Positions 3,613 to 12,501 of a DNA stretch of 12,501 nt are shown here, one piece after another. The notes beneath the pieces are model-generated. The model saw only the letters and a program-made list of their open reading frames with translations, did no database searches and was not told where the DNA came from. A program made the translations under genes and the position numbers. The DNA comes from a virus: UHGV virus genome UHGV-1654647; one strand, given 5' to 3'. Positions within the stretch are counted from its first letter, which is position 1, and each line of letters begins with the position of its first letter.

Positions 3613-4122
3613 ATGATGACGCTGATTATTCCGCGAAAGGAGGCTCCCGTGTCCGGTGAGGGTACGGTGGTCATCCCGCAACCGGCAGGCGACGAGCCGG
3701 TGATTAAAAACACGTTCTTTTTTCCCGATATCGACCCGAAGCGCGTCCGGGAACGTATGCGCCTTGAGCAGACCGTCGCCCCCGCCCGTCTGCGTGAGGC
3801 CATCAAGTCAGGCATGGCGGAGACGAATGCGGAGCTGTACGAGTACCGCGAACAGAAAATTGCCGCCGGTTTTACGCGTCTGGCGGACGTCCCGGCGGAC
3901 GACATCGACGGTGAAAGCATCAAAGTTTTTTACTACGAGCGCGCCGTGTGTGCGATGGCGACCGCGTCGCTTTATGAACGTTATCGCGGTGTGGATGCCA
4001 GTGCGAAAGGCGACAAGAAGGCCGACAGCATTGACAGCACCATTGATGAGCTGTGGCGGGATATGCGCTGGGCAGTGGCGCGCATCCAGGGCAAGCCGCG
4101 CTGCATCGTGAGTCAAATCTGA
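3613..4122 (+). CDS. L: Head completion/stabilisation protein (169 aa)
   Basis: ORF 3553..4122; start placed at ATG 3613 (MMTLIIPRKEAPVSGEG...), giving 169 aa as I recall for P2 gpL; stop overlaps X start (TGATG). Confidence 0.88.
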   Translation: MMTLIIPRKEAPVSGEGTVVIPQPAGDEPVIKNTFFFPDIDPKRVRERMRLEQTVAPARLREAIKSGMAETNAELYEYREQKIAAGFTRLADVPADDIDGESIKVFYYERAVCAMATASLYERYRGVDASAKGDKKADSIDSTIDELWRDMRWAVARIQGKPRCIVSQI

Positions 4123-4325
4123 TGAAGACCTTTGCGCTACAGGGCGACACGCTCGACGCCATTTGTGTCCGGTATTACGGGCGCACTGAGGGCGTGGTTG
4201 AGACCGTGCTCGCCGCAAATCCGGGACTGGCTGAACTGGGTGCGGTGCTGCCACACGGCACCGCCGTCGAACTGCCCGACGTTCAGACCGCGCCCGTGGC
4301 TGAAACTGTCAATCTGTGGGAGTAA
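4122..4325 (+). CDS. X: Tail protein X (67 aa, LysM-like fold family)
   Basis: Internal ATG 4122 of ORF 4053..4325 (MKTFALQGDTLDAICVRYYGRTEGVVETVLAANPGLAELGAVLPHGTAVELP...); start overlaps L stop; size and position match P2 gpX. Confidence 0.85.
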   Translation: MKTFALQGDTLDAICVRYYGRTEGVVETVLAANPGLAELGAVLPHGTAVELPDVQTAPVAETVNLWE

Positions 4326-4328
4326 CGC

Positions 4329-4610
4329 ATGACAGCAGAAGAAAAAAGCGTCCTGTCGCTTTTCATGATTGGGGTGCTGATTGTTGTCGGCAAGGTGCTT
4401 GCCGGTGGTGAACCCATCACCCCGCGTCTGTTTATCGGGCGCATGTTGCTCGGTGGTTTTGTCTCGATGGTTGCCGGTGTTGTTCTGGTGCAGTTTCCTG
4501 ACCTGTCACTGCCTGCGGTGTGCGGTATCGGCTCCATGCTGGGTATCGCCGGTTATCAGGTGATTGAGATTGCCATTCAGCGCCGCTTTAAGGGCAGGGG
4601 GAAACCGTAA
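4329..4610 (+). CDS. Y: Holin (93 aa)
   Basis: Small protein with hydrophobic transmembrane stretches (LSLFMIGVLIVVGKVLAGG..., GGFVSMVAGVVLVQF...) and charged C-terminus; sits immediately upstream of the endolysin; stop overlaps K start (TAATG). Confidence 0.88.
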   Translation: MTAEEKSVLSLFMIGVLIVVGKVLAGGEPITPRLFIGRMLLGGFVSMVAGVVLVQFPDLSLPAVCGIGSMLGIAGYQVIEIAIQRRFKGRGKP

Positions 4611-5107
4611 TGCCGGTTATTAACACGCATCAGAATATCGCCGCCTTTCTCGACATGCTGGCCGTGTCCGAAGGGACGGCAAACCATCCGCTGACGAAAA
4701 ACCGGGGCTATGACGTGATAGTCACCGGACTGGACGGGAAGCCGGAAATTTTCACCGACTACAGTGACCACCCGTTCGCACATGGCCGACCGGCGAAGGT
4801 GTTTAACCGTCGCGGTGAAAAATCCACGGCCTCCGGTCGCTATCAGCAGCTTTACCTGTTCTGGCCGCATTACCGCAAACAGCTTGCCCTGCCGGATTTC
4901 AGTCCGTTGTCACAGGACAGACTTGCCATTCAGTTGATCCGCGAACGCGGTGCACTGGATGACATCCGGGCGGGACGCATTGAGCGCGCCATTTCACGCT
5001 GTCGCAATATCTGGGCGTCCCTGCCGGGTGCCGGTTACGGTCAGCGTGAGCATTCACTGGAAAAACTGGTCACCGTCTGGCGTGCCGCTGGCGGCGTACC
5101 GGCTTAA
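4610..5107 (+). CDS. K: Endolysin (lysozyme/muramidase-like, 165 aa)
   Basis: ORF 4610..5107, MPVINTHQNIAAFLDMLAVSEGTANHPLTKNRGYDVIVTG...; second gene of the lysis cassette; length matches P2 gpK. Confidence 0.88.
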   Translation: MPVINTHQNIAAFLDMLAVSEGTANHPLTKNRGYDVIVTGLDGKPEIFTDYSDHPFAHGRPAKVFNRRGEKSTASGRYQQLYLFWPHYRKQLALPDFSPLSQDRLAIQLIRERGALDDIRAGRIERAISRCRNIWASLPGAGYGQREHSLEKLVTVWRAAGGVPA

Positions 5108-5121
5108 ACGGAGTAAACACC

Positions 5122-5547
5122 ATGAAGAAATTATCCCTTTCACTGATGCTGAACGTGTCGCTGGCGCTGATGCTGGCACTGTCCCTGATTTACCCGCAGA
5201 GCGTGGCCGTCAATTTTGTCGCCGCCTGGGCGATTCTGGCGACGGTTATCTGTGTGGTTGCCGGTGGTGTCGGCGTGTATGCCACTGAGTATGTGCTGGA
5301 ACGCTACGGGCGGGAGCTGCCGCCGGAATCGCTGGCCGTGAAGATTGTCGCGTCGCTGTTTTTGCAGCCGGTGCCGTGGCGCAGACGGGCGGCGGCTCTG
5401 GTGGTGATGGTGGCGACGTTTATCTCGCTGGTCGCTGCCGGGTGGATTTTTACCGCGCTGATTTACCTCGTGGCGTCGGTGTTCTTCCGGTTGATACGCA
5501 CGGCCTGTCGTCAGCGTTTTGAGGGGCGGGAACCATGTCAAAGCTGA
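5122..5547 (+). CDS. lysA: Lysis timing/regulator membrane protein LysA (141 aa)
   Basis: ORF 5122..5547, strongly hydrophobic with multiple predicted transmembrane segments; located between endolysin and spanin genes as in P2. Confidence 0.8.
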   Translation: MKKLSLSLMLNVSLALMLALSLIYPQSVAVNFVAAWAILATVICVVAGGVGVYATEYVLERYGRELPPESLAVKIVASLFLQPVPWRRRAAALVVMVATFISLVAAGWIFTALIYLVASVFFRLIRTACRQRFEGREPCQS

Positions 5548-5960
5548 TGATTGTGCTGGTTGTGTTGTTATCACTGGCGGTGGCCGGTCTGTTTCTGGCG
5601 AAGCATGAAAACGCCAGCCTGCGCACCTCGCTGGACAGGGCGAACAACGTCGCCAACGGGCAGCAGACGACCATCACCATGCTGAAAAATCAGCTTCATG
5701 TTGCCCTCGCCAGAGCAGACAAAAACGAGCTGGCGCAGGTGGCACTGCGTCAGGAACTGGAGAACGCGGCGAAGCGTGAAGCACAGCGCGAGAAAACCAT
5801 CACGAGGTTACTGAATGAAAACGAAGATTTTCGCCGCTGGTACGGCGCTGGCCTGCCTGATGCTGTGCGCCGGTTGCACCAGCGCCCGGCCTGCACCGAC
5901 GCCAGTGATTGTCGCCAACGCCTGCCCGAAAGTGAGCCTTTGCCCGATGCCGGGCAGTGA
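5535..5960 (+). CDS. lysB: Inner-membrane spanin (Rz-like) LysB (141 aa)
   Basis: ORF 5535..5960; N-terminal TM anchor (MSKLMIVLVVLLSLAVAGLFLA) followed by a charged, coiled-coil-like periplasmic region; start overlaps lysA end by 13 nt. Confidence 0.83.
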   Translation: MSKLMIVLVVLLSLAVAGLFLAKHENASLRTSLDRANNVANGQQTTITMLKNQLHVALARADKNELAQVALRQELENAAKREAQREKTITRLLNENEDFRRWYGAGLPDAVRRLHQRPACTDASDCRQRLPESEPLPDAGQ

Positions 5961-6105
5961 CCCGGAGACGAACGGCGATTTAAGTGCCGATATCCGACAG
6001 CTTGAGAACGCGCTGGCACGCTGTGCCAGCCAGGTAAAAATGATTAAACACTGTCAGGACGAAAACGATGCTCAAACCCGACAGCCTGCGCAGGGCGCTG
6101 ACTGA
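5815..6105 (+). CDS. lysC: Outer-membrane lipoprotein spanin (Rz1-like) LysC (96 aa), in +1 frame overlapping lysB 3' end and R 5' end
   Basis: ORF 5815..6105; signal peptide with Cys-containing lipobox-like motif (MKTKIFAAGTALACLMLCAGC) then Pro-rich mature part (TSARPAPTPVIVANACPKVSLCPMPGSDPE); overlapped architecture as in P2 lysB/lysC. Confidence 0.75.
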   Translation: MKTKIFAAGTALACLMLCAGCTSARPAPTPVIVANACPKVSLCPMPGSDPETNGDLSADIRQLENALARCASQVKMIKHCQDENDAQTRQPAQGAD

Positions 6106-6535
6106 TGCCGTCACGGTGCTGAAAACCAGTCCCGAGATGCTGCGGATATTCGTTGATAACGGGAGTATTGCCTCCACGCTGGCGACGTCGTTGTCATTCG
6201 AAAAGCGTTACACGCTCAATGTGATTGTGACCGACTTTACCGGTGATTTTGACCTGCTCATCGTGCCGGTGCTGGCGTGGCTGCGGGAAAATCAGCCCGA
6301 CATCATGACCACCGACGCAGGCCAGAAAAAGGGCTTCACGTTTTATGCAGACATCAACAATGACAGCAGCTTTGATATCAGCATCAGCCTGATGCTGACC
6401 GAGCGCACGCTGGTCAGTGAGGTGGACGGCGCACTGCATGTGAAGAATATCCCGGAACCCACGCCGCCGGAGCCGGTCACCCGCCCGGTGGAGCTTTATA
6501 TCAATGGCGAACTGGTGAGCAAGTGGGATGAATGA
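6068..6535 (+). CDS. R: Tail completion protein R (155 aa)
   Basis: ORF 6068..6535; position after the lysis cassette and length match P2 gpR; stop overlaps S start (ATGAATGA). Confidence 0.87.
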   Translation: MLKPDSLRRALTDAVTVLKTSPEMLRIFVDNGSIASTLATSLSFEKRYTLNVIVTDFTGDFDLLIVPVLAWLRENQPDIMTTDAGQKKGFTFYADINNDSSFDISISLMLTERTLVSEVDGALHVKNIPEPTPPEPVTRPVELYINGELVSKWDE

Positions 6536-6980
6536 GTTTAAGCGTTTTGAAGACCGGCTGACCGGACTGATTGAATCGCTGTCACCGTCAGGGCGTCGGC
6601 GACTGAGCGCCGAACTGGCGAAACGTCTGCGGCAGAGTCAGCAGCGTCGGGTGATGGCTCAGAAAGCCCCGGACGGCACACCCTACGCGCCACGCCAGCA
6701 GCAGAGCGCCAGAAAAAAGACTAGTCGTGTTAAGCGAAAAATGTTTGCGAAACTTATCACCAGTCGTTTTTTGCATATCAGCGCCAGCACGGAACAGGCA
6801 TCAATGGAATTTTACGGCGGAAAGTCACCGAAAATTGCGAGCGTGCATCAGTTCGGTCTGTCGGAAGAAACCCGGAAAGACGGTAAGAAAATTGATTATC
6901 CGGCGCGTCCCCTGCTCGGCTTTACCGGTGAGGATGTGCAGATGATTGAAGAGATTATTCTGGCGCACCTCGACCGTTAG
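6528..6980 (+). CDS. S: Tail completion protein S (150 aa)
   Basis: ORF 6528..6980, MNEFKRFEDRLTGLIESLSPSGRRRLSAELAKRLRQSQ...; position and length match P2 gpS. Confidence 0.87.
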   Translation: MNEFKRFEDRLTGLIESLSPSGRRRLSAELAKRLRQSQQRRVMAQKAPDGTPYAPRQQQSARKKTSRVKRKMFAKLITSRFLHISASTEQASMEFYGGKSPKIASVHQFGLSEETRKDGKKIDYPARPLLGFTGEDVQMIEEIILAHLDR

Positions 6981-7046
6981 TTGTGCCATTCCCGACACCT
7001 CATCGTCACATTGCCGCCGGTATGACCCGGCGGCATCCTTCCCGTT
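6981..7046 (+). promoter_or_regulatory. S-V intergenic region with a perfect GC-rich hairpin (7013-7034) immediately before V; probable location of the V-operon late promoter or a 5' leader structure
   Basis: 66-bp gap; GCCGCCGG (7013-7020), loop TATGAC, CCGGCGGC (7027-7034) is a perfect 8-bp inverted repeat ending 12 nt before the V ATG; no obvious SD for V; no T-run after the stem. P2 has a late promoter in front of V. Confidence 0.35.
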
Positions 7047-7682
7047 ATGAACACTCTCGCAAATATTCAGGAACTCGCGCGCGCACTGCGCAACATGATC
7101 CGCACCGGCCTTGTCGTCGAAACCGACCTTGACGCCGGTCGTTGCCGTGTGCAGACCGGCGGCATGTGCACTGACTGGCTTCAGTGGCTGACCCATCGCG
7201 CCGGACGTTCGCGCACATGGTGGGCGCCTTCCGTGGGGGAACAGGTGTTGATTCTGTCCGTGGGCGGTGAACTCGACACGGCGTTCGTTCTGCCGGGGAT
7301 TTATTCCGGCGATAACCCTGCGCCGTCTGCGTCGGCGGATGCACTGCATATCCGTTTCCCTGACGGGGCGGTGATTGAGTATGAACCCGAAACCAGTGGA
7401 CTCACGGTAAGCGGAATTAAAACGGCCAGCGTGACGGCTTCTGATTCTGTTACTGCCACGGTGCCGGTGGTCATGGTGAAAGCATCAACCCGCGTCACCC
7501 TGGACACACCGGAGGTGGTCTGCACCAACAAGCTGATTACCGGCACGCTGGAAGTGCAGAAGGGCGGGACGATGCGCGGCAACATTGAACACACCGGCGG
7601 TGAACTCTCATCAAACGGTAAGGTACTGCATACCCATAAACACCCCGGCGACAGCGGCGGCACAACCGGGAGTCCTTTATGA
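7047..7682 (+). CDS. V: Baseplate central spike protein (211 aa)
   Basis: ORF 7047..7682; length and position match P2 gpV; stop overlaps W start (ATGA). Confidence 0.88.
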   Translation: MNTLANIQELARALRNMIRTGLVVETDLDAGRCRVQTGGMCTDWLQWLTHRAGRSRTWWAPSVGEQVLILSVGGELDTAFVLPGIYSGDNPAPSASADALHIRFPDGAVIEYEPETSGLTVSGIKTASVTASDSVTATVPVVMVKASTRVTLDTPEVVCTNKLITGTLEVQKGGTMRGNIEHTGGELSSNGKVLHTHKHPGDSGGTTGSPL

Positions 7683-8026
7683 CAGCGCGTTATCTCGGAA
7701 TGAATCGCAGTGATGGCCTGACTGTCACTGACCTTGAGCATATCAGCCAGAGTATCGGCGATATCCTGCGTACCCCCGTCGGCTCACGGGTGATGCGTCG
7801 TGATTACGGCTCGTTGCTGGCGTCAATGATTGACCAGCCGCAGACCCCGGCGCTTGAGTTGCAGATTAAGGTCGCCTGTTACATGGCGGTGCTGAAATGG
7901 GAACCCCGCGTAACCCTGTCATCCGTCACCACTGAGCGCAGTTTTGACGGGCGAATGACTGTCACTTTGACCGGCCAGCACAACGACACCGGCCAGCCAC
8001 TTTCGTTAACCATCCCTGTGAGTTGA
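7679..8026 (+). CDS. W: Baseplate wedge protein (T4 gp25-like, 115 aa)
   Basis: ORF 7679..8026, MTARYLGMNRSDGLTVTDLEHISQSIGDILRTPVGSRVMRRDYGS...; length and position match P2 gpW. Confidence 0.88.
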   Translation: MTARYLGMNRSDGLTVTDLEHISQSIGDILRTPVGSRVMRRDYGSLLASMIDQPQTPALELQIKVACYMAVLKWEPRVTLSSVTTERSFDGRMTVTLTGQHNDTGQPLSLTIPVS

Positions 8027-8030
8027 AACC

Positions 8031-8939
8031 ATGCCGATTATCGACCTGAACCAGCTACCCGCACCGGATGTGGTCGAGGAGCTGGACTTTGAAACCATTC
8101 TCGCCGAACGCAAGGCGACACTGATTTCCCTTTACCCGGAAGACCAGCAGGAGGCGGTCGCCCGTACCCTGACGCTGGAATCCGAGCCTCTCGTCAAACT
8201 GCTGGAGGAAAATGCTTATCGTGAGCTTATCTGGCGTCAGCGTGTGAATGAGGCTGCACGGGCGGTAATGCTGGCCTGTGCCGCCGGTAATGACCTTGAT
8301 GTGATTGGTGCCAATTACAACACCACGCGCCTGACTATCACCCCGGCAGATGATTCGACCCTCCCGCCGACACCGGCCGTGATGGAATCTGACACCGATT
8401 ACCGTCTGCGTATTCAGCAGGCGTTTGAAGGTTTAAGCGTCGCCGGGTCGGTGGGAGCCTATCAGTATCATGGTCGCAGTGCCGACGGGCGTGTCGCGGA
8501 TATTTCTGTAACCAGTCCGTCTCCGGCCTGCGTCACCATCTCTGTGCTGTCACGTGAAAATAACGGTGTTGCATCCGAAGACCTGCTGGCCGTGGTGCGT
8601 AACGCCCTTAATGGTGAGGACGTCAGGCCGGTGGCCGACCGCGTGACCGTGCAGTCTGCCGCCATCGTTGAATACCAGATAAACGCCACGCTTTACCTTT
8701 ACCCTGGTCCCGAAAGCGAACCCATCCGCGCTGCTGCCGTGAAAAAACTGGAAGCGTACATCACGGCACAGCACCGGCTGGGGCGTGACATCCGTCTGTC
8801 TGCCATTTATGCCGCTTTGCATGTGGAAGGCGTGCAGCGTGTCGAACTGGCTGCACCACTGGCCGACATCGTGCTCAACAATACGCAGGCGTCTTTCTGT
8901 ACCGAATACAGCGTCGTGACCGGAGGCTCGGATGAGTGA
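8031..8939 (+). CDS. J: Baseplate assembly protein J (302 aa)
   Basis: ORF 8031..8939; length and order match P2 gpJ; stop overlaps I start (ATGAGTGA). Confidence 0.88.
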   Translation: MPIIDLNQLPAPDVVEELDFETILAERKATLISLYPEDQQEAVARTLTLESEPLVKLLEENAYRELIWRQRVNEAARAVMLACAAGNDLDVIGANYNTTRLTITPADDSTLPPTPAVMESDTDYRLRIQQAFEGLSVAGSVGAYQYHGRSADGRVADISVTSPSPACVTISVLSRENNGVASEDLLAVVRNALNGEDVRPVADRVTVQSAAIVEYQINATLYLYPGPESEPIRAAAVKKLEAYITAQHRLGRDIRLSAIYAALHVEGVQRVELAAPLADIVLNNTQASFCTEYSVVTGGSDE

Positions 8940-9543
8940 TTCGCGACTGCTGCCGACCGGCTCATCACCGCTTGAAGTTGCCGCCGCAAAAGCCTGTGCG
9001 GAAATTGAAAAAACGCCGGTCAGTATTCGTGAGCTGTGGAACCCGGACACCTGCCCGGCAAATCTGCTGCCGTGGCTGGCGTGGTCATTTTCGGTTGACC
9101 GCTGGGATGATAAGTGGCCGGAAGCGACAAAACGCGCTGTTATCCGCGATGCGTATTTCATTCACTGCCATAAGGGCACTATAGGCGCAATCCGACGTGT
9201 GGTGGAGCCGCTCGGCTATCTGATTGAGGTGAGGGAGTGGTGGCAACTCAACGAGGAGCCGGGGACGTTCCGTATCGTTGTTGGCGTGCTTGAGCAGGGT
9301 ATTACCGAGGAAATGTATCAGGAGCTGGAGCGCCTCGTTGCTGATGCAAAACCGGCAAGCCGCCATCTGACGGGACTGGCTATCAGTTTAAGTACAACCG
9401 GCAACATTTTTGCCGGTGCGGGATGCTATCACGGCGACGCCCTGACGGTTTATCCCTACACCCCGGAGGCCATTATTGTCGGAGGGGATTATTTCCCGGC
9501 CTCGGCCATTCATTTAATTGATAACCTGAGAGTAAACGCATGA
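8932..9543 (+). CDS. I: Baseplate protein I (203 aa; apparently longer than the 176 aa I recall for P2 gpI)
   Basis: ORF 8932..9543, MSDSRLLPTGSSPLEVAAAKACAEIEKTPVSIRELWNPDTCPANLLPWLAWSF...; start overlaps J stop, stop overlaps H start (ATGA). Confidence 0.82.
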   Translation: MSDSRLLPTGSSPLEVAAAKACAEIEKTPVSIRELWNPDTCPANLLPWLAWSFSVDRWDDKWPEATKRAVIRDAYFIHCHKGTIGAIRRVVEPLGYLIEVREWWQLNEEPGTFRIVVGVLEQGITEEMYQELERLVADAKPASRHLTGLAISLSTTGNIFAGAGCYHGDALTVYPYTPEAIIVGGDYFPASAIHLIDNLRVNA

Positions 9544-11087
9544 CAGTGAAATACTACGCCATTCTGACTAATCAGGGCGCGGCACGGCTGGCTAACGCGA
9601 CGATGCTCGGCAGTAAGCTGAATCTGACGCAAATGGCCGTTGGTGATGCGAATGGTGTCTTGCCGACACCAGACCCGGCACAGACAAAACTGATTAATCA
9701 GAAACGCATTGCACCGCTGAATCTTCTGAGTGTTGACCCGAACAACCAGAGCCAGATTATTGCGGAGCAAATCATCCCTGAGAACGAGGGCGGATTCTGG
9801 ATCCGTGAGATTGGGCTTTATGATGATGAAGGCGTACTCATTGCGGTGGCGAACTGCCCGGAAACGTACAAACCGCAGTTGCAGGAAGGCAGCGGTCGTA
9901 CCCAGACTATCCGCATGATTCTGGTTGTCACGAATACCGAAGCCATCACGCTGAAAATCGACCCGTCGGTGGTACTGGCGACCCGTAAATACGTGGATGA
10001 TGAAGTTCTGGAATTAAAGCTGTATGTGGATGACCAGATGAGAAACCACATTGCCGCACAGGATCCTCATACCCAGTATGCACAGAAACATAATCCGACA
10101 TTTACCGGAGAACCAAAAGCGCCGACGCCTGCCGCAGGAAATAACACCACGCGGATTGCGACCACTGAGTTTGTTCAGGCCGCTATTACCGCTCTGATTA
10201 ACGGTGCGCCAGCCACGCTGGACACACTGAAAGAAATTGCCTCAGCCATTAACAATGACCCGAAATTCAGCACCACCATTAACAATGCGCTGGCACTGAA
10301 AGCTCCGCTGTCGAGTCCCGCACTTACCGGAACGCCAACAGCACCTACTGCGGCACAGTCGGTCAACAATACACAGATTGCCACCACGGCTTTTGTGAAA
10401 TCAGCAATTGCGGCAATGGTGGGTTCTGCCCCTGCGGCACTGGATACACTGAATGAACTGGCGGCGGCGCTGGGGAATGACCCTAACTTTTCAACAACAG
10501 TGCTTAATGCACTGGCAGGCAAACAACCGCTGGACAATACGCTGACTAATTTGAGTGGAAAGGATGTTGCCGGTCTTCTCGCATACCTTGGTTTGGGAGA
10601 AGGCTCTGCATTACCTGTTGGTGTCCCTGTTCCGTGGCCTTCAGCCACTCCGCCAACAGGCTGGCTGAAATGCAATGGTGCAGCTTTTTCTGCTGAAGAA
10701 TACCCGGAACTGGCAAAAGTTTACCCGACAAATAAATTGCCTGATTTACGTGGTGAGTTTATTCGTGGCTGGGATGACGGGCGGGGGATTGATACAGGTC
10801 GCTCTATTTTAAGTATTCAGGGATATGCAACGGAGGATCATGCTCATGGATTACCGTCAAGATCCACGATTGTGACTGATGCAACTATTAATTTCTATTT
10901 TGATGAAAGCTGGGTAAATAGTGGCACTGACATTATCAAAAGAGGAAACACAAACGATGCCGGATTACCAGCACCGGATTATGGAACCTTTAAAACATAT
11001 AAACAATCAGTGGCTGGTTTAGGTGCCGCAGCCTCAGAAACGCGTCCGCGTAATATTGCATTTAACTATATCGTGAGGGCAGTCTGA
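9540..11087 (+). CDS. H: Tail fibre protein (515 aa): baseplate-attachment N-terminus, two tail-fibre repeats, crossover site, then collar-like receptor-binding C-terminus
   Basis: ORF 9540..11087. N-terminus has P2 gpH-like motifs (EGGFWIREIGLYDDEGVLIAVANCPETYKPQLQEGSGRTQT). C-terminus has tail-collar-like motifs (PVGVPVPWPSATPPTGWLKCNGAAFSAEEYPELAKVY, LPDLRGEFIRGWDDGRG). Much shorter than the 669 aa I recall for P2 gpH. Confidence 0.88.
   Translation: MTVKYYAILTNQGAARLANATMLGSKLNLTQMAVGDANGVLPTPDPAQTKLINQKRIAPLNLLSVDPNNQSQIIAEQIIPENEGGFWIREIGLYDDEGVLIAVANCPETYKPQLQEGSGRTQTIRMILVVTNTEAITLKIDPSVVLATRKYVDDEVLELKLYVDDQMRNHIAAQDPHTQYAQKHNPTFTGEPKAPTPAAGNNTTRIATTEFVQAAITALINGAPATLDTLKEIASAINNDPKFSTTINNALALKAPLSSPALTGTPTAPTAAQSVNNTQIATTAFVKSAIAAMVGSAPAALDTLNELAAALGNDPNFSTTVLNALAGKQPLDNTLTNLSGKDVAGLLAYLGLGEGSALPVGVPVPWPSATPPTGWLKCNGAAFSAEEYPELAKVYPTNKLPDLRGEFIRGWDDGRGIDTGRSILSIQGYATEDHAHGLPSRSTIVTDATINFYFDESWVNSGTDIIKRGNTNDAGLPAPDYGTFKTYKQSVAGLGAAASETRPRNIAFNYIVRAV
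10092..10307 (+). repeat. Tail-fibre repeat unit 1 (protein-level, about 72 aa) within H
   Basis: NPTFTGEPKAPTPAAGNNTTRIATTEFVQAAITALINGAPATLDTLKEIASAINNDPKFSTTINNALALKAPL aligns residue by residue with unit 2; the DNA copies are diverged. Confidence 0.7.
10311..10532 (+). repeat. Tail-fibre repeat unit 2 (protein-level, about 74 aa) within H
   Basis: SSPALTGTPTAPTAAQSVNNTQIATTAFVKSAIAAMVGSAPAALDTLNELAAALGNDPNFSTTVLNALAGKQPL; same motif order as unit 1 (Pro/Thr linker, NNTxIATTxFV, APAxLDTLxEuAxAuxNDPxFSTTuxNALAxK). Confidence 0.7.
10576..10601 (+). repeat. Left crossover site of invertible segment (gix/hix/cix-like 26-bp site) inside H
   Basis: TTCTCGCATACC-TT-GGTTTGGGAGAA: two imperfectly palindromic 12-bp half-sites around a central TT; resembles recalled gixL TTCCTGTAAACCGAGGTTTTGGATAA and hixL. 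Its 3' 15 nt are repeated exactly, inverted, at 12447-12461. Encodes LLAYLGLGE in the H frame. Confidence 0.7.
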
Positions 11088-11689
11088 TGCATAAAGCAAT
11101 ATTAAATAGTGAGCTCATTGCAACAAAGGCAGGGGATGTTACCGTTTATAACTATGATGGTGAAACACGGGAATATATTTCCACTTCAAATGAATATCTT
11201 GCCGTTGGTGTCGGCATTCCGGCATGTTCCTGTTTAGATGCCCCTGGCACACATAAGGCTGGTTATGCAATCTGCCGTTCTGCAGATTTTAACTCATGGG
11301 AATATGTGCCAGACCATCGCGGTGAAACGGTCTATAGCACCGAAACAGGAGAATCAAAAGAAATCACCGCTCCGGGTGATTACCCTGAAAATACAACCAC
11401 TATCGCCCCATTAACGCCATATGATAAATGGGATGGTGAGAAATGGGTGACGGATACCGAGGCACAGCATAGCGCCGCAGTAGATGCAGCAGAAGCACAG
11501 CGCCAGTCGCTGATTGATACTGCAATGGCTTCCATCAGTCTGATTCAACTGAAATTGCAGGCCGGACGTAAACTGACGCAGGCAGAAACAACCCGGCTTA
11601 ACGCTGTGCTGGATTACATTGACGCGGTGACGGCAACAGATACCAGCACCGCGCCGGATGTCATCTGGCCTGAACTGCCGGAGGCGTAG
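11087..11689 (+). CDS. G: Tail fibre assembly chaperone (Tfa family, 200 aa), partner of the currently expressed H C-terminus
   Basis: ORF 11087..11689; start overlaps H stop (TGATG); C-terminal Tfa-type motif (NAVLDYIDAVTATDTSTAPDVIWPELPEA); position equivalent to P2 gene G, but 200 aa versus the 175 aa I recall. Confidence 0.85.
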   Translation: MHKAILNSELIATKAGDVTVYNYDGETREYISTSNEYLAVGVGIPACSCLDAPGTHKAGYAICRSADFNSWEYVPDHRGETVYSTETGESKEITAPGDYPENTTTIAPLTPYDKWDGEKWVTDTEAQHSAAVDAAEAQRQSLIDTAMASISLIQLKLQAGRKLTQAETTRLNAVLDYIDAVTATDTSTAPDVIWPELPEA

Positions 11690-12104
11690 GCCATTCAATA
11701 TCTGGCGCACCGGAAGTATCGACCAGTTCCAGTGCGTCCAGGTAATCCAGCCACAAATTATATTGCGCCAGTTCGTCACCTTTCAGACGACCAATAGCTG
11801 CTTTGCCAGGCCATTGCTTACTGTTCATATATTCGTTGGCATTATCAATAAGATTTTGCTTTTGAGCTGTGGCAAGGAGTATTGCTTCTTCAGGAGCCAT
11901 TGGTGGAATATCAACCCACTCAGGTTGTCCATCATCATTTGCACCGCGCGCTTTCCCTTCAGGTGGTGTTCCTGAATAAGTCAAAAATATTTCATCAGAT
12001 ACTGGCGTAATATCATCCGGTAAGCTGTCATATGAGCGATATAGCTCCAGCATATCTACCGGATAAAAAGCTAACGTCGTCCGTGAAAAATAATAATTAC
12101 TCAT
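11661..12104 (-). CDS. Alternative tail fibre assembly chaperone (Tfa family, 147 aa), convergent with G
   Basis: ORF 11661..12104 minus; MSNYYFSRTTLAFYPVD...; C-terminus YNLWLDYLDALELVDTSGAPDIEWPTPPAVQAR carries the same Tfa motif as G; 3' ends of the two chaperone genes overlap by 29 nt (11661-11689). Confidence 0.8.
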   Translation of the reverse strand: MSNYYFSRTTLAFYPVDMLELYRSYDSLPDDITPVSDEIFLTYSGTPPEGKARGANDDGQPEWVDIPPMAPEEAILLATAQKQNLIDNANEYMNSKQWPGKAAIGRLKGDELAQYNLWLDYLDALELVDTSGAPDIEWPTPPAVQAR

Positions 12105-12105
12105 A

Positions 12106-12501
12106 TCAGCACCCTATTGCAAACCAGCGAAAATTATAATTGCCACCAGAAGCATCACAGCGTAGAAGAAATCCTGTTCTGGTCATATTCCCTGCTGCCC
12201 CGGCAACAATTTTTCCGCCACCATTATCGTAGGACGTCACCACCTGAAAACATTGTGACGGAAAAGCGATTGTGAAATTCATCTCATTGCCTGTCGAGCC
12301 TACATAACCCGTACCTGCATCTCCTGCCCCCCATTGGATAATCAATCCTCCCGGTAACTTCTGATATCCCTTGCTGGCAATACTGTCAGAAAAAGAACTC
12401 ATATCCGGTATCTGACCTGAACCTGTTCCCACATCCCGTTTTGCCGCTTCTCCCAAACCAACGTTTATGAAAATGCAGAGATAACGGGCAAGTGGCATCA
12501 T
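12106..12501 (-). CDS. Alternative tail-fibre C-terminal receptor-binding cassette; probably start-less and expressed only when inversion fuses it to the constant part of H
   Basis: Minus-strand ORF running from the window edge to a stop at 12106-12108, 1 nt upstream of the alternative chaperone start; crossover site lies at codons NVGLGE; downstream Gly-rich sequence (AAKRDVGTGSGQIPDMSSFSDSIASKGYQKLPGGLIIQWGAGDAGTGYVGSTG...) unrelated to the plus-strand H C-terminus. The ATG ATG at 12496-12501 may be fortuitous. Confidence 0.65.
   Translation of the reverse strand: MMPLARYLCIFINVGLGEAAKRDVGTGSGQIPDMSSFSDSIASKGYQKLPGGLIIQWGAGDAGTGYVGSTGNEMNFTIAFPSQCFQVVTSYDNGGGKIVAGAAGNMTRTGFLLRCDASGGNYNFRWFAIGC
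12448..12473 (+). repeat. Right crossover site of invertible segment (inverted relative to 10576-10601)
   Basis: TTCTCCCAAACC-AA-CGTTTATGAAAA; its reverse complement TTTTCATAAACG-TT-GGTTTGGGAGAA shares the central dinucleotide and the whole right half-site with the left site; half-site TTCTCCCAAACC resembles the gix half-site TTATCCAAAACC. Confidence 0.7.

Follow-up and report, generated by a model that had tools for sequence, protein, structure and literature searches.

A pix-like 26-mer in the tail fibre gene H of a P2-like Escherichia coli prophage as the left crossover site of an invertible segment

The evidence assembled here supports the assignment of a 26-base-pair element in the tail fibre gene H of a P2-like (Peduovirus) prophage of Escherichia coli as the left (H-proximal) crossover site of an invertible tail fibre segment of the Hin/Gin family (Din). 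The analysis covers a 12,501-nucleotide stretch of DNA (hereafter the window) and its relatives, including a prophage of E. coli AH01 in which the segment is found in the opposite orientation. We consider it very likely that a Pin-type, probably Fis-dependent serine invertase inverts this segment and thereby swaps the tip of the tail fibre. The relevant features, with positions in the window, are listed below.

9540 to 10575, + strand: constant N-terminal part of H, comprising the baseplate attachment and a repeat-containing shaft (Pfam Phage_tail_fib at amino acids 1-150)
10576 to 10601, + strand: left crossover site, pixL-like, 12-2-12 (matrix score 28.1 bits; 23/26 to published pixL)
10590 to 12459, no strand: invertible segment from core to core (interior 100% identical to AH01 in reverse complement)
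10602 to 11087, + strand: variable C-terminus fused to H, a receptor-binding tip of the StfE type, ON cassette (Pfam Collar at amino acids 361-408)
11087 to 11689, + strand: TfaE-like assembly chaperone, ON cassette (Pfam Caudo_TAP, E=3.5e-33)
11661 to 12104, - strand: assembly chaperone, silent cassette (Pfam Caudo_TAP, E=1.5e-28)
12106 to 12447, - strand: silent alternative C-terminus, gp53-like_C (Pfam Gp53-like_C, E=1.9e-18)
12448 to 12473, inverted, listed on the + strand: right crossover site (26/26 to published pixR of e14; 25.6 bits)
12474 to 12501, + strand: start of the spacer leading from the right site to the invertase gene (100% identity to AH01, locus L002)

The left site, TTCTCGCATACCTTGGTTTGGGAGAA, lies on the + strand and is the sole match to this sequence in the window when up to three mismatches are allowed. 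It has the 12-2-12 layout that the original prediction had described. An outer half-site, TTCTCGCATACC, is followed by a TT core at 10588-10589 and by an inner half-site that reads TTCTCCCAAACC when inverted, giving TTCTCGCATACC-TT-GGTTTGGGAGAA as written on the + strand. The two half-sites agree at 10 of 12 positions. Together with the preceding base at 10575, the same nucleotides form codons 346-354 (LLAYLGLGE) of the 515-amino-acid open reading frame (ORF) at 9540-11087.

The match to the family consensus was scored with a half-site position weight matrix. It was derived from the hix, gix, cix, mix and bix sites in the literature (PMC3241671 Table 3), and pix was deliberately excluded. The 26-mer at 10576 scores 28.1 bits and that at 12448 scores 25.6 bits, whereas the third-best 26-mer in the window reaches 8.6 bits and the maximum across 100 shuffles of the window is 17.0 bits. 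The left site thus matches the consensus beyond chance. As a control, the matrix picked out exactly the annotated G-segment boundaries (gix) of Mu and both cixL and cixR of P1.

Judged by its nucleotides, the site is of the pix type known from e14. When read on the other strand, it matches e14 pixL at 23 of 26 positions: the inner half is identical to the pix inner half at 12 of 12 and the outer half differs from that of e14 pixL at three. Identity to gix and hixL is just 17-19 of 26. The half-site that the original prediction used for comparison, TTATCCAAAACC, is indeed the outer half of gix, but the window's half-sites are nearer to pix than to gix or hix. The suggested alignment to known invertase sites did uncover identity beyond chance, both for the left site and for its partner.

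The position of the site within H is consistent with a boundary between a constant and an exchangeable part of the fibre. The H ORF is 51% identical to gpH of P2 over amino acids 26-332, and this homology stops just ahead of the site. A 71-amino-acid tandem repeat (amino acids 189-259 and 263-333) lies just upstream, and the Pfam Collar domain begins at amino acid 361, as anticipated for a change from shaft to receptor-binding domain. The predicted shift in base composition is also present, with GC falling from 53.7% to 47.0% across the site and GC at third codon positions (GC3) falling from 54.5% to 32.3%. The ORFs neighbouring H are the P2 baseplate genes J and I, and the nearest E. coli loci have the usual P2 order of lysis genes, R, S, V, W, J, I and H.

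Downstream of the site are two tip cassettes that face each other. The ON tip cassette is 94% identical in nucleotides to stfE/tfaE of e14, and an invertible locus of EPEC E2348/69 is 94.8% identical to window positions 10586-11863. The start of the ON chaperone gene overlaps the H stop codon (TGATG). The two chaperone genes are convergent, and their 3′ ends overlap by 29 nucleotides. The silent tip shares 38% identity with the StfP C-terminus of e14, and the alignment begins at N-[VL]-GLGE. When the segment is inverted in silico, the silent tip joins LLAYLGLGE in frame to yield an H protein of 467 amino acids.

The partner site at 12448-12473 has the inverted orientation and reads TTCTCCCAAACC-AA-CGTTTATGAAAA, with the AA core at 12460-12461. 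Aligned as inverted repeats, the sites have one and the same core dinucleotide (TT and AA), and they form the longest inverted repeat (I1) in 9500-12501. A distance of 1846 bp separates the two 26-mers, corresponding to a segment of about 1.85 kb. The GC content of the invertible segment is 46.7%, compared with 57% in the upstream prophage genes. Over 12447-12501, the window differs from e14 at five positions, all of them outside the right-site 26-mer. A matrix scan of the window for further crossover sites, such as a multi-inversion system would have, found only these two above background. The element does not belong with the multiple-inversion systems (Min of p15B and the Rci shufflons), which have at least three crossover sites and more than two arrangements and, in the shufflons, a tyrosine recombinase. 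Only two sites in the window stand above background, and the AH01 recombinase is of the serine type.

Support for inversion comes from a natural isolate. E. coli AH01 contains the predicted inverted junction, which matches at 100% over 300 nucleotides to either side. The AH01 prophage is 100% identical to the window over 4302-10602 and 12447-12501, and positions 10588-12461 are present there as the exact reverse complement. When the alignment is extended, a single mismatch appears, at 12462, where the outer half-sites first diverge. The left breakpoint lies within 10588-10602 and the right breakpoint within 12447-12461. Because the flanks are identical and the interior is an exact reverse complement, the exchange is confined to the 15-nucleotide stretch that is common to both sites and includes the core (TTGGTTTGGGAGAAG). 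The annotated H gene of AH01 is 1404 bp long and codes for 467 amino acids, as predicted for a flipped window. This comparison points to at least one inversion event and does not give a rate.

Both orientations also occur among relatives. We counted 36 IMG/VR loci that carry the exact 26-mer and at least 4 kb of downstream sequence. An inverted partner is found 1.1-5.2 kb away in 30 of these 36, and in 28 of those 30 at 1.5-2.0 kb. In 28 loci a partner and an invertase are both present; H is fused to the Collar-type tip (ON) in 14 of these and to the gp53-type tip in nine. The tips of these loci are only 30-60% identical to those of the window. The orientation counts were taken from IMG/VR loci because the cassette pair is too rare in complete E. 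coli genomes: in that collection, three records match 80% or more of the arrangement in the window, and the flipped junction is covered by two. A scan for the exact 26-mer in one genome per species matched a single Escherichia sp. genome, a result that says little about taxonomic range.

An invertase gene presumably adjoins the right site, as it does in the AH01 prophage. Window positions 12447-12501 are 100% identical to positions 8146-8200 of the AH01 locus, and the recombinase coding sequence follows at 8228-8821. In AH01 the gene starts 28 nucleotides past the window end, after a spacer of 54-55 nucleotides from the right site. A 197-amino-acid recombinase likewise follows the right site after a spacer of about 55 nucleotides in SCU-316, pro483 and Peduovirus magyaro. 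The AH01 recombinase has the Resolvase and HTH_7 domains, matches the Gin structure 3UJ3 with E=6.6e-95 and is 88%, 78% and 80% identical to PinE, Gin and Cin, respectively. It carries Ser9, K46/K47/R50 and Q150/R153/L154, the latter two sets equivalent to Hin residues 47/48/51 and 151/154/155. These two sets are described as specific to invertases that depend on Fis and an enhancer (PMC3798978). A search for promoters and terminators near the right site and the start of the invertase gene gave hits that were not meaningfully above those in shuffles, and none of them was a sigma-70-like promoter for the invertase.

The 5′ part of the invertase gene may contain a Fis-bound recombinational enhancer. 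The centres of the Fis sites in such an element are expected to lie 48 bp apart, and the AH01 gene has G-N13-C cores at nucleotides 22-36 and 71-85, which are 49 bp apart. The Cin enhancer is annotated at nucleotides 19-90 of cin in the P1 record, and the same interval of the AH01 gene is identical to it at 58 of 72 positions. We treat the enhancer as a candidate because the core spacing is 49 rather than 48 bp and because the first core of the cin enhancer is without the terminal C. About 96 bp separate the proximal Fis-like core from the right-site centre; for Hin, the corresponding distance between site and enhancer is about 100 bp (PMC3798978).

With an inverted partner that has the same core, alternative C-termini that fuse in frame, an AH01 prophage flipped at the sites and a Gin/Pin-type invertase adjoining in AH01, the original prediction of a left recombination site of the Hin/Gin family has held up well. 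In the mechanism that we propose, an invertase of the Gin/Pin family, whose gene would lie immediately beyond the window end, would bind as dimers at 10576-10601 and at the inverted partner. By analogy with Hin and Gin, both sites would be cut at the central TT/AA dinucleotide, rotated and religated, and the 1.85-kb segment between them would flip. The crossover point is internal to the H coding sequence, where the LGLGE junction is conserved, and a flip would therefore exchange the receptor-binding tip: the Collar/StfE-type tip and its chaperone would give way to the gp53-like tip with its own chaperone. The presumed outcome is an altered host range of the virions.

The presence of the 26-mer alone is no proof of activity, because the exact sequence is kept in two P2-like contigs (L067 and L068) in which the H C-terminus and Tfa are followed by the sheath gene without a partner or an invertase. 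P2 has a lone gix-like 26-mer at the same junction, also without a partner (L004 13857; 23 bits; 23/26 to gix; encoding IEYLGLQE), and lambdoid HK106 has a degenerate single copy there, consisting of the core and inner half only. The 26-mer can thus persist after the switch is lost, either because it encodes protein or simply as a relic, and the copy in the window might be read as merely a conserved coding junction (a YLGLGE linker between shaft and tip) or as the remains of a past switch that no longer recombines. We judge this to be very improbable, given that the window has a full partner identical to pixR and a second in-frame cassette with its own chaperone. In addition, the identical AH01 prophage has an intact invertase and differs from the window by exactly this inversion, with an interior that is 100% identical. 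The original prediction had named H homologs with the same 26-mer and no partner as evidence against a recombination site. Such genes were found in L067 and L068, but their existence does not discriminate between the readings and the evidence for function in the window stands. As to how the segment was flipped, the comparison of two genomes reveals only an inversion between identical 15-nucleotide repeats and not the enzyme, so general (RecA-type) or illegitimate recombination between short inverted repeats might be proposed in place of the invertase. We give this explanation almost no weight. Repeats of fifteen nucleotides would be very short substrates for homologous recombination, and these repeats coincide exactly with the window's two Din-consensus 26-mers. 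An intact Pin-like invertase adjoins them in AH01, and both orientations are common among relatives (14 versus nine). Moreover, inversion of the homologous e14 segment needs Pin recombinases (PMC12529663).

A further function of the site might be as a junction for the exchange of receptor-binding cassettes among unrelated phages, either by an invertase acting in trans or by short-homology recombination. This role would be additional to inversion, not an alternative to it, and we regard it as possible but on balance doubtful. Nucleotide homology to e14, the EPEC locus, lambdoid HK106 and other phages begins at window positions 10582-10588, which correspond to the site core; for HK106 it starts exactly at the core and inner half of the left site. 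The same 26-mer also flanks C-termini that are just 30-60% identical to that of the window, and the drop in GC3 noted above falls at the site. However, this evidence is purely comparative, with no intermolecular event observed, and selection for a functional fibre junction would put mosaic joints here too. Since the window has the partner and second cassette, and AH01 has the adjoining invertase and is itself flipped, neither the relic nor the mosaic-joint observations weaken the case for a working inversion system in the window.

As the window stands, the silent-tip ORF continues through the right site to an ATG at 12501. In this orientation the right site links the silent gp53-like tip to a leader of 18 codons (MMPLARYLCIFINVGLGE), creating a free-standing ORF of 131 amino acids (12106-12501, - strand). 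This ORF is a structural analogue of StfE2 of e14, which was reported in a 2025 paper to block adsorption of phage T2 after inversion of the P segment. It is conceivable, but in our view rather unlikely, that the switch also toggles the phage resistance of the lysogen and responds in trans to Pin-family invertases of other prophages. If true, the switch would affect lysogen resistance as well as virion host range.

For a common P2-like prophage of E. coli, the result identifies both sites of crossover, the segment that inverts and the two alternative forms of the fibre protein, and it matters little beyond annotation. The arrangement explains why the silent cassette is automatically annotated as a separate “gp53-like domain-containing protein” or as a pseudogene, and why assemblies of such prophages break or fold back here. 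For host-range work and tailocin engineering, the site marks an exact in-frame joint for natural exchange of receptor-binding tips.

Among the classic systems, the G segment of Mu with Gin and the C segment of P1 with Cin share with the window the mechanism class, a constant N-terminus and a crossover within the fibre gene at LGL[GQ]E. They also share the two cassettes of tip and chaperone, and an adjoining invertase gene, whose 5′ coding region has an enhancer in Mu and P1 and a candidate enhancer in AH01. Their segments are longer, at 3.0 and 4.2 kb. The Mu gix core is GA instead of AA and the identity of its sites to that of the window is just 17-18 of 26. For P1, cix identity is 18-21 of 26, long flanking repeats are present and cin is located on the other side. 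The Salmonella H segment with Hin (hixL and hixR) has 26-bp sites, an AA core, an invertase of the same serine subfamily and a distance between site and enhancer similar to that of the candidate enhancer in AH01. It differs in that a promoter is flipped and not a coding cassette, in that hin lies inside the segment, and in a site identity of 15-19 of 26.

The closest known system is the P segment of e14, a defective lambdoid prophage of E. coli K-12, with its Pin system (pinE, pixL and pixR). The right site is identical to pixR at all 26 positions, and the inner half-site and core are identical to those of both pix sites. The P segment of e14 inverts at TTGGTTTGGGAGAAGG (PMC12529663), and this 16-mer is present at window positions 10588-10603. 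The layout is also shared, with two convergent cassettes of tip and chaperone and a 29-nucleotide overlap of the chaperone 3′ ends (tfaP/tfaE in e14). In both systems the invertase gene lies about 55 nucleotides beyond the right site, and the two invertases are 88% identical in amino acids. In contrast to e14, the window's carrier has the whole tail module of a P2-like myovirus, and its fibre has a constant part that resembles gpH of P2 and not StfP. The second cassette is without a nucleotide match to e14, its tip being 38% identical in amino acids to StfP, and the invertase of the window type, as seen in AH01, has a C-terminal tail that is longer by 13 amino acids. We rejected the possibility that the element is e14 itself, given that homology is limited to one cassette, the right site and the invertase, that the carrier is P2-like and that the left outer half differs. 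On these comparisons, the window system is homologous to the e14 P segment and is not the same element.

Comparable invertible tail fibre loci occur in other P2-like prophages. Fels-2 of Salmonella with Fin, the P2 loci of EPEC E2348/69, Peduovirus pro483 and Peduovirus magyaro share the same invertase type and the same position between H/G and the sheath gene FI, which is the Z/fun hotspot of P2. A survey found that this hotspot often holds an invertase (bioRxiv 10.1101/2024.10.15.618418), and Fels-2 has been described with fin and a flipped fibre gene (PMC7953296). A report on the P2-like coliphages P88 and pro147 (PMC5285337) does not mention an invertase. The identical 26-mer is present in H of pro483 and magyaro. 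Cassette content differs between these phages. The two sites of magyaro are perfect reverse complements of each other, unlike those of the window, and three repeats with four variants are present at one EPEC locus. At the EPEC locus with 94.8% identity to the window, the inner half-sites are the same and a Pin-like recombinase is present, but the N-terminal part of H has been lost and the outer half-site is degenerate. Sequencing and PCR have demonstrated that two P2 loci of EPEC E2348/69 phase-vary (PMC4272514), and a phase-varying cassette there is the one that is 94.8% identical to that of the window (PMC4272514 Table S1). Inversion in P2-like prophages of E. coli is already known experimentally, and the window is a further example of it.

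Phage P2 (L004, NC_001895) carries one gix-like 26-mer, TTATCGAATATCTCGGTTTACAGGAA, at positions 13857-13882, within H at the junction equivalent to that occupied by the left site of the window. This sequence encodes IEYLGLQE, matches gix at 23 of 26 positions, and scores 23 bits with a weight matrix derived from published hix, gix, cix, mix and bix sites, pix being left out. P2 has no invertase, and the whole P2 genome holds no partner for the 26-mer. The single copy is apparently either a relic or a remnant kept under coding constraint. Two P2-like IMG/VR contigs (L067 and L068) have the exact 26-mer of the window in H, where a single cassette of tip and chaperone is followed directly by the sheath gene FI. 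Both lack a partner site and an invertase, and they are therefore locked relatives.

The side tail fibre gene of the lambdoid phage HK106 retains just the core and the inner half-site (3995-4020), ACCTTGGTTTGGGAGAA, which encodes NLGLGE, with neither a partner nor an invertase within 4 kb. Nucleotide homology between HK106 and the window, at 94%, begins precisely at the crossover. The comparison of HK106 with the window shows the crossover site as a point at which myovirus and siphovirus fibres are joined in a mosaic.

Four contigs, three of them from IMG/VR (L072, L064 and L024), fold back on themselves, such that a flank is followed by the segment and then by the reverse complement of the same flank. 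The inverted repeat of L072 extends over 5002 nt at 99.98% identity and ends at the site, and the fourth contig (L011, Escherichia sp. MOD1-EC7003), which is 1860 nt long, has terminal inverted repeats of 76 nt. These fold-back contigs are most likely assembly artefacts from cultures in which both orientations were present when sequenced. Another short IMG/VR contig (L054, 5839 nt) has four matrix-positive sites and a scrambled gene order: an H N-terminus, reversed sheath and invertase genes, a tip, a chaperone, a second H N-terminus and further genes. The contig could be misassembled, or could stem from prophages in tandem or from an arrangement with multiple sites.

Among complete E. coli genomes, only that of strain SCU-316 (L001, 5001-7963; 96.8% identity) has the entire arrangement of the window. 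Its invertase is intact, while the annotation marks H, the silent tip and both chaperone genes as pseudogenes with frameshifts. This may point to decay of the copy or to poor quality of the assembly.

Two features of the window have counterparts in the lambdoid E. coli prophage e14.

11661-11689, 29-nt overlap of the 3' ends of the two convergent tail-fibre chaperone genes
12106-12501, minus strand, silent tip ORF, which crosses the right site and reaches an ATG at the end of the window

The overlap is exactly the same in e14 tfaP/tfaE, and in the window it lies between the arms (11608-11625 and 11734-11751) of an inverted repeat of 18 nt that is 89% complementary. The silent tip ORF encodes 131 amino acids, comprising an 18-codon leader and gp53-like_C, and in relatives it is a separate protein in the PGAP annotation. 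Its analogue in e14 is 'StfE2', which is reported to block T2 adsorption (PMC12529663). Relative to P2, the window lacks orf30 between S and V (6980-7047), leaving a gap of only 66 nt, and the invertible cassette and the invertase, which falls in the region past 12501, lie between H and the sheath gene FI, where P2 has G and fun(Z).
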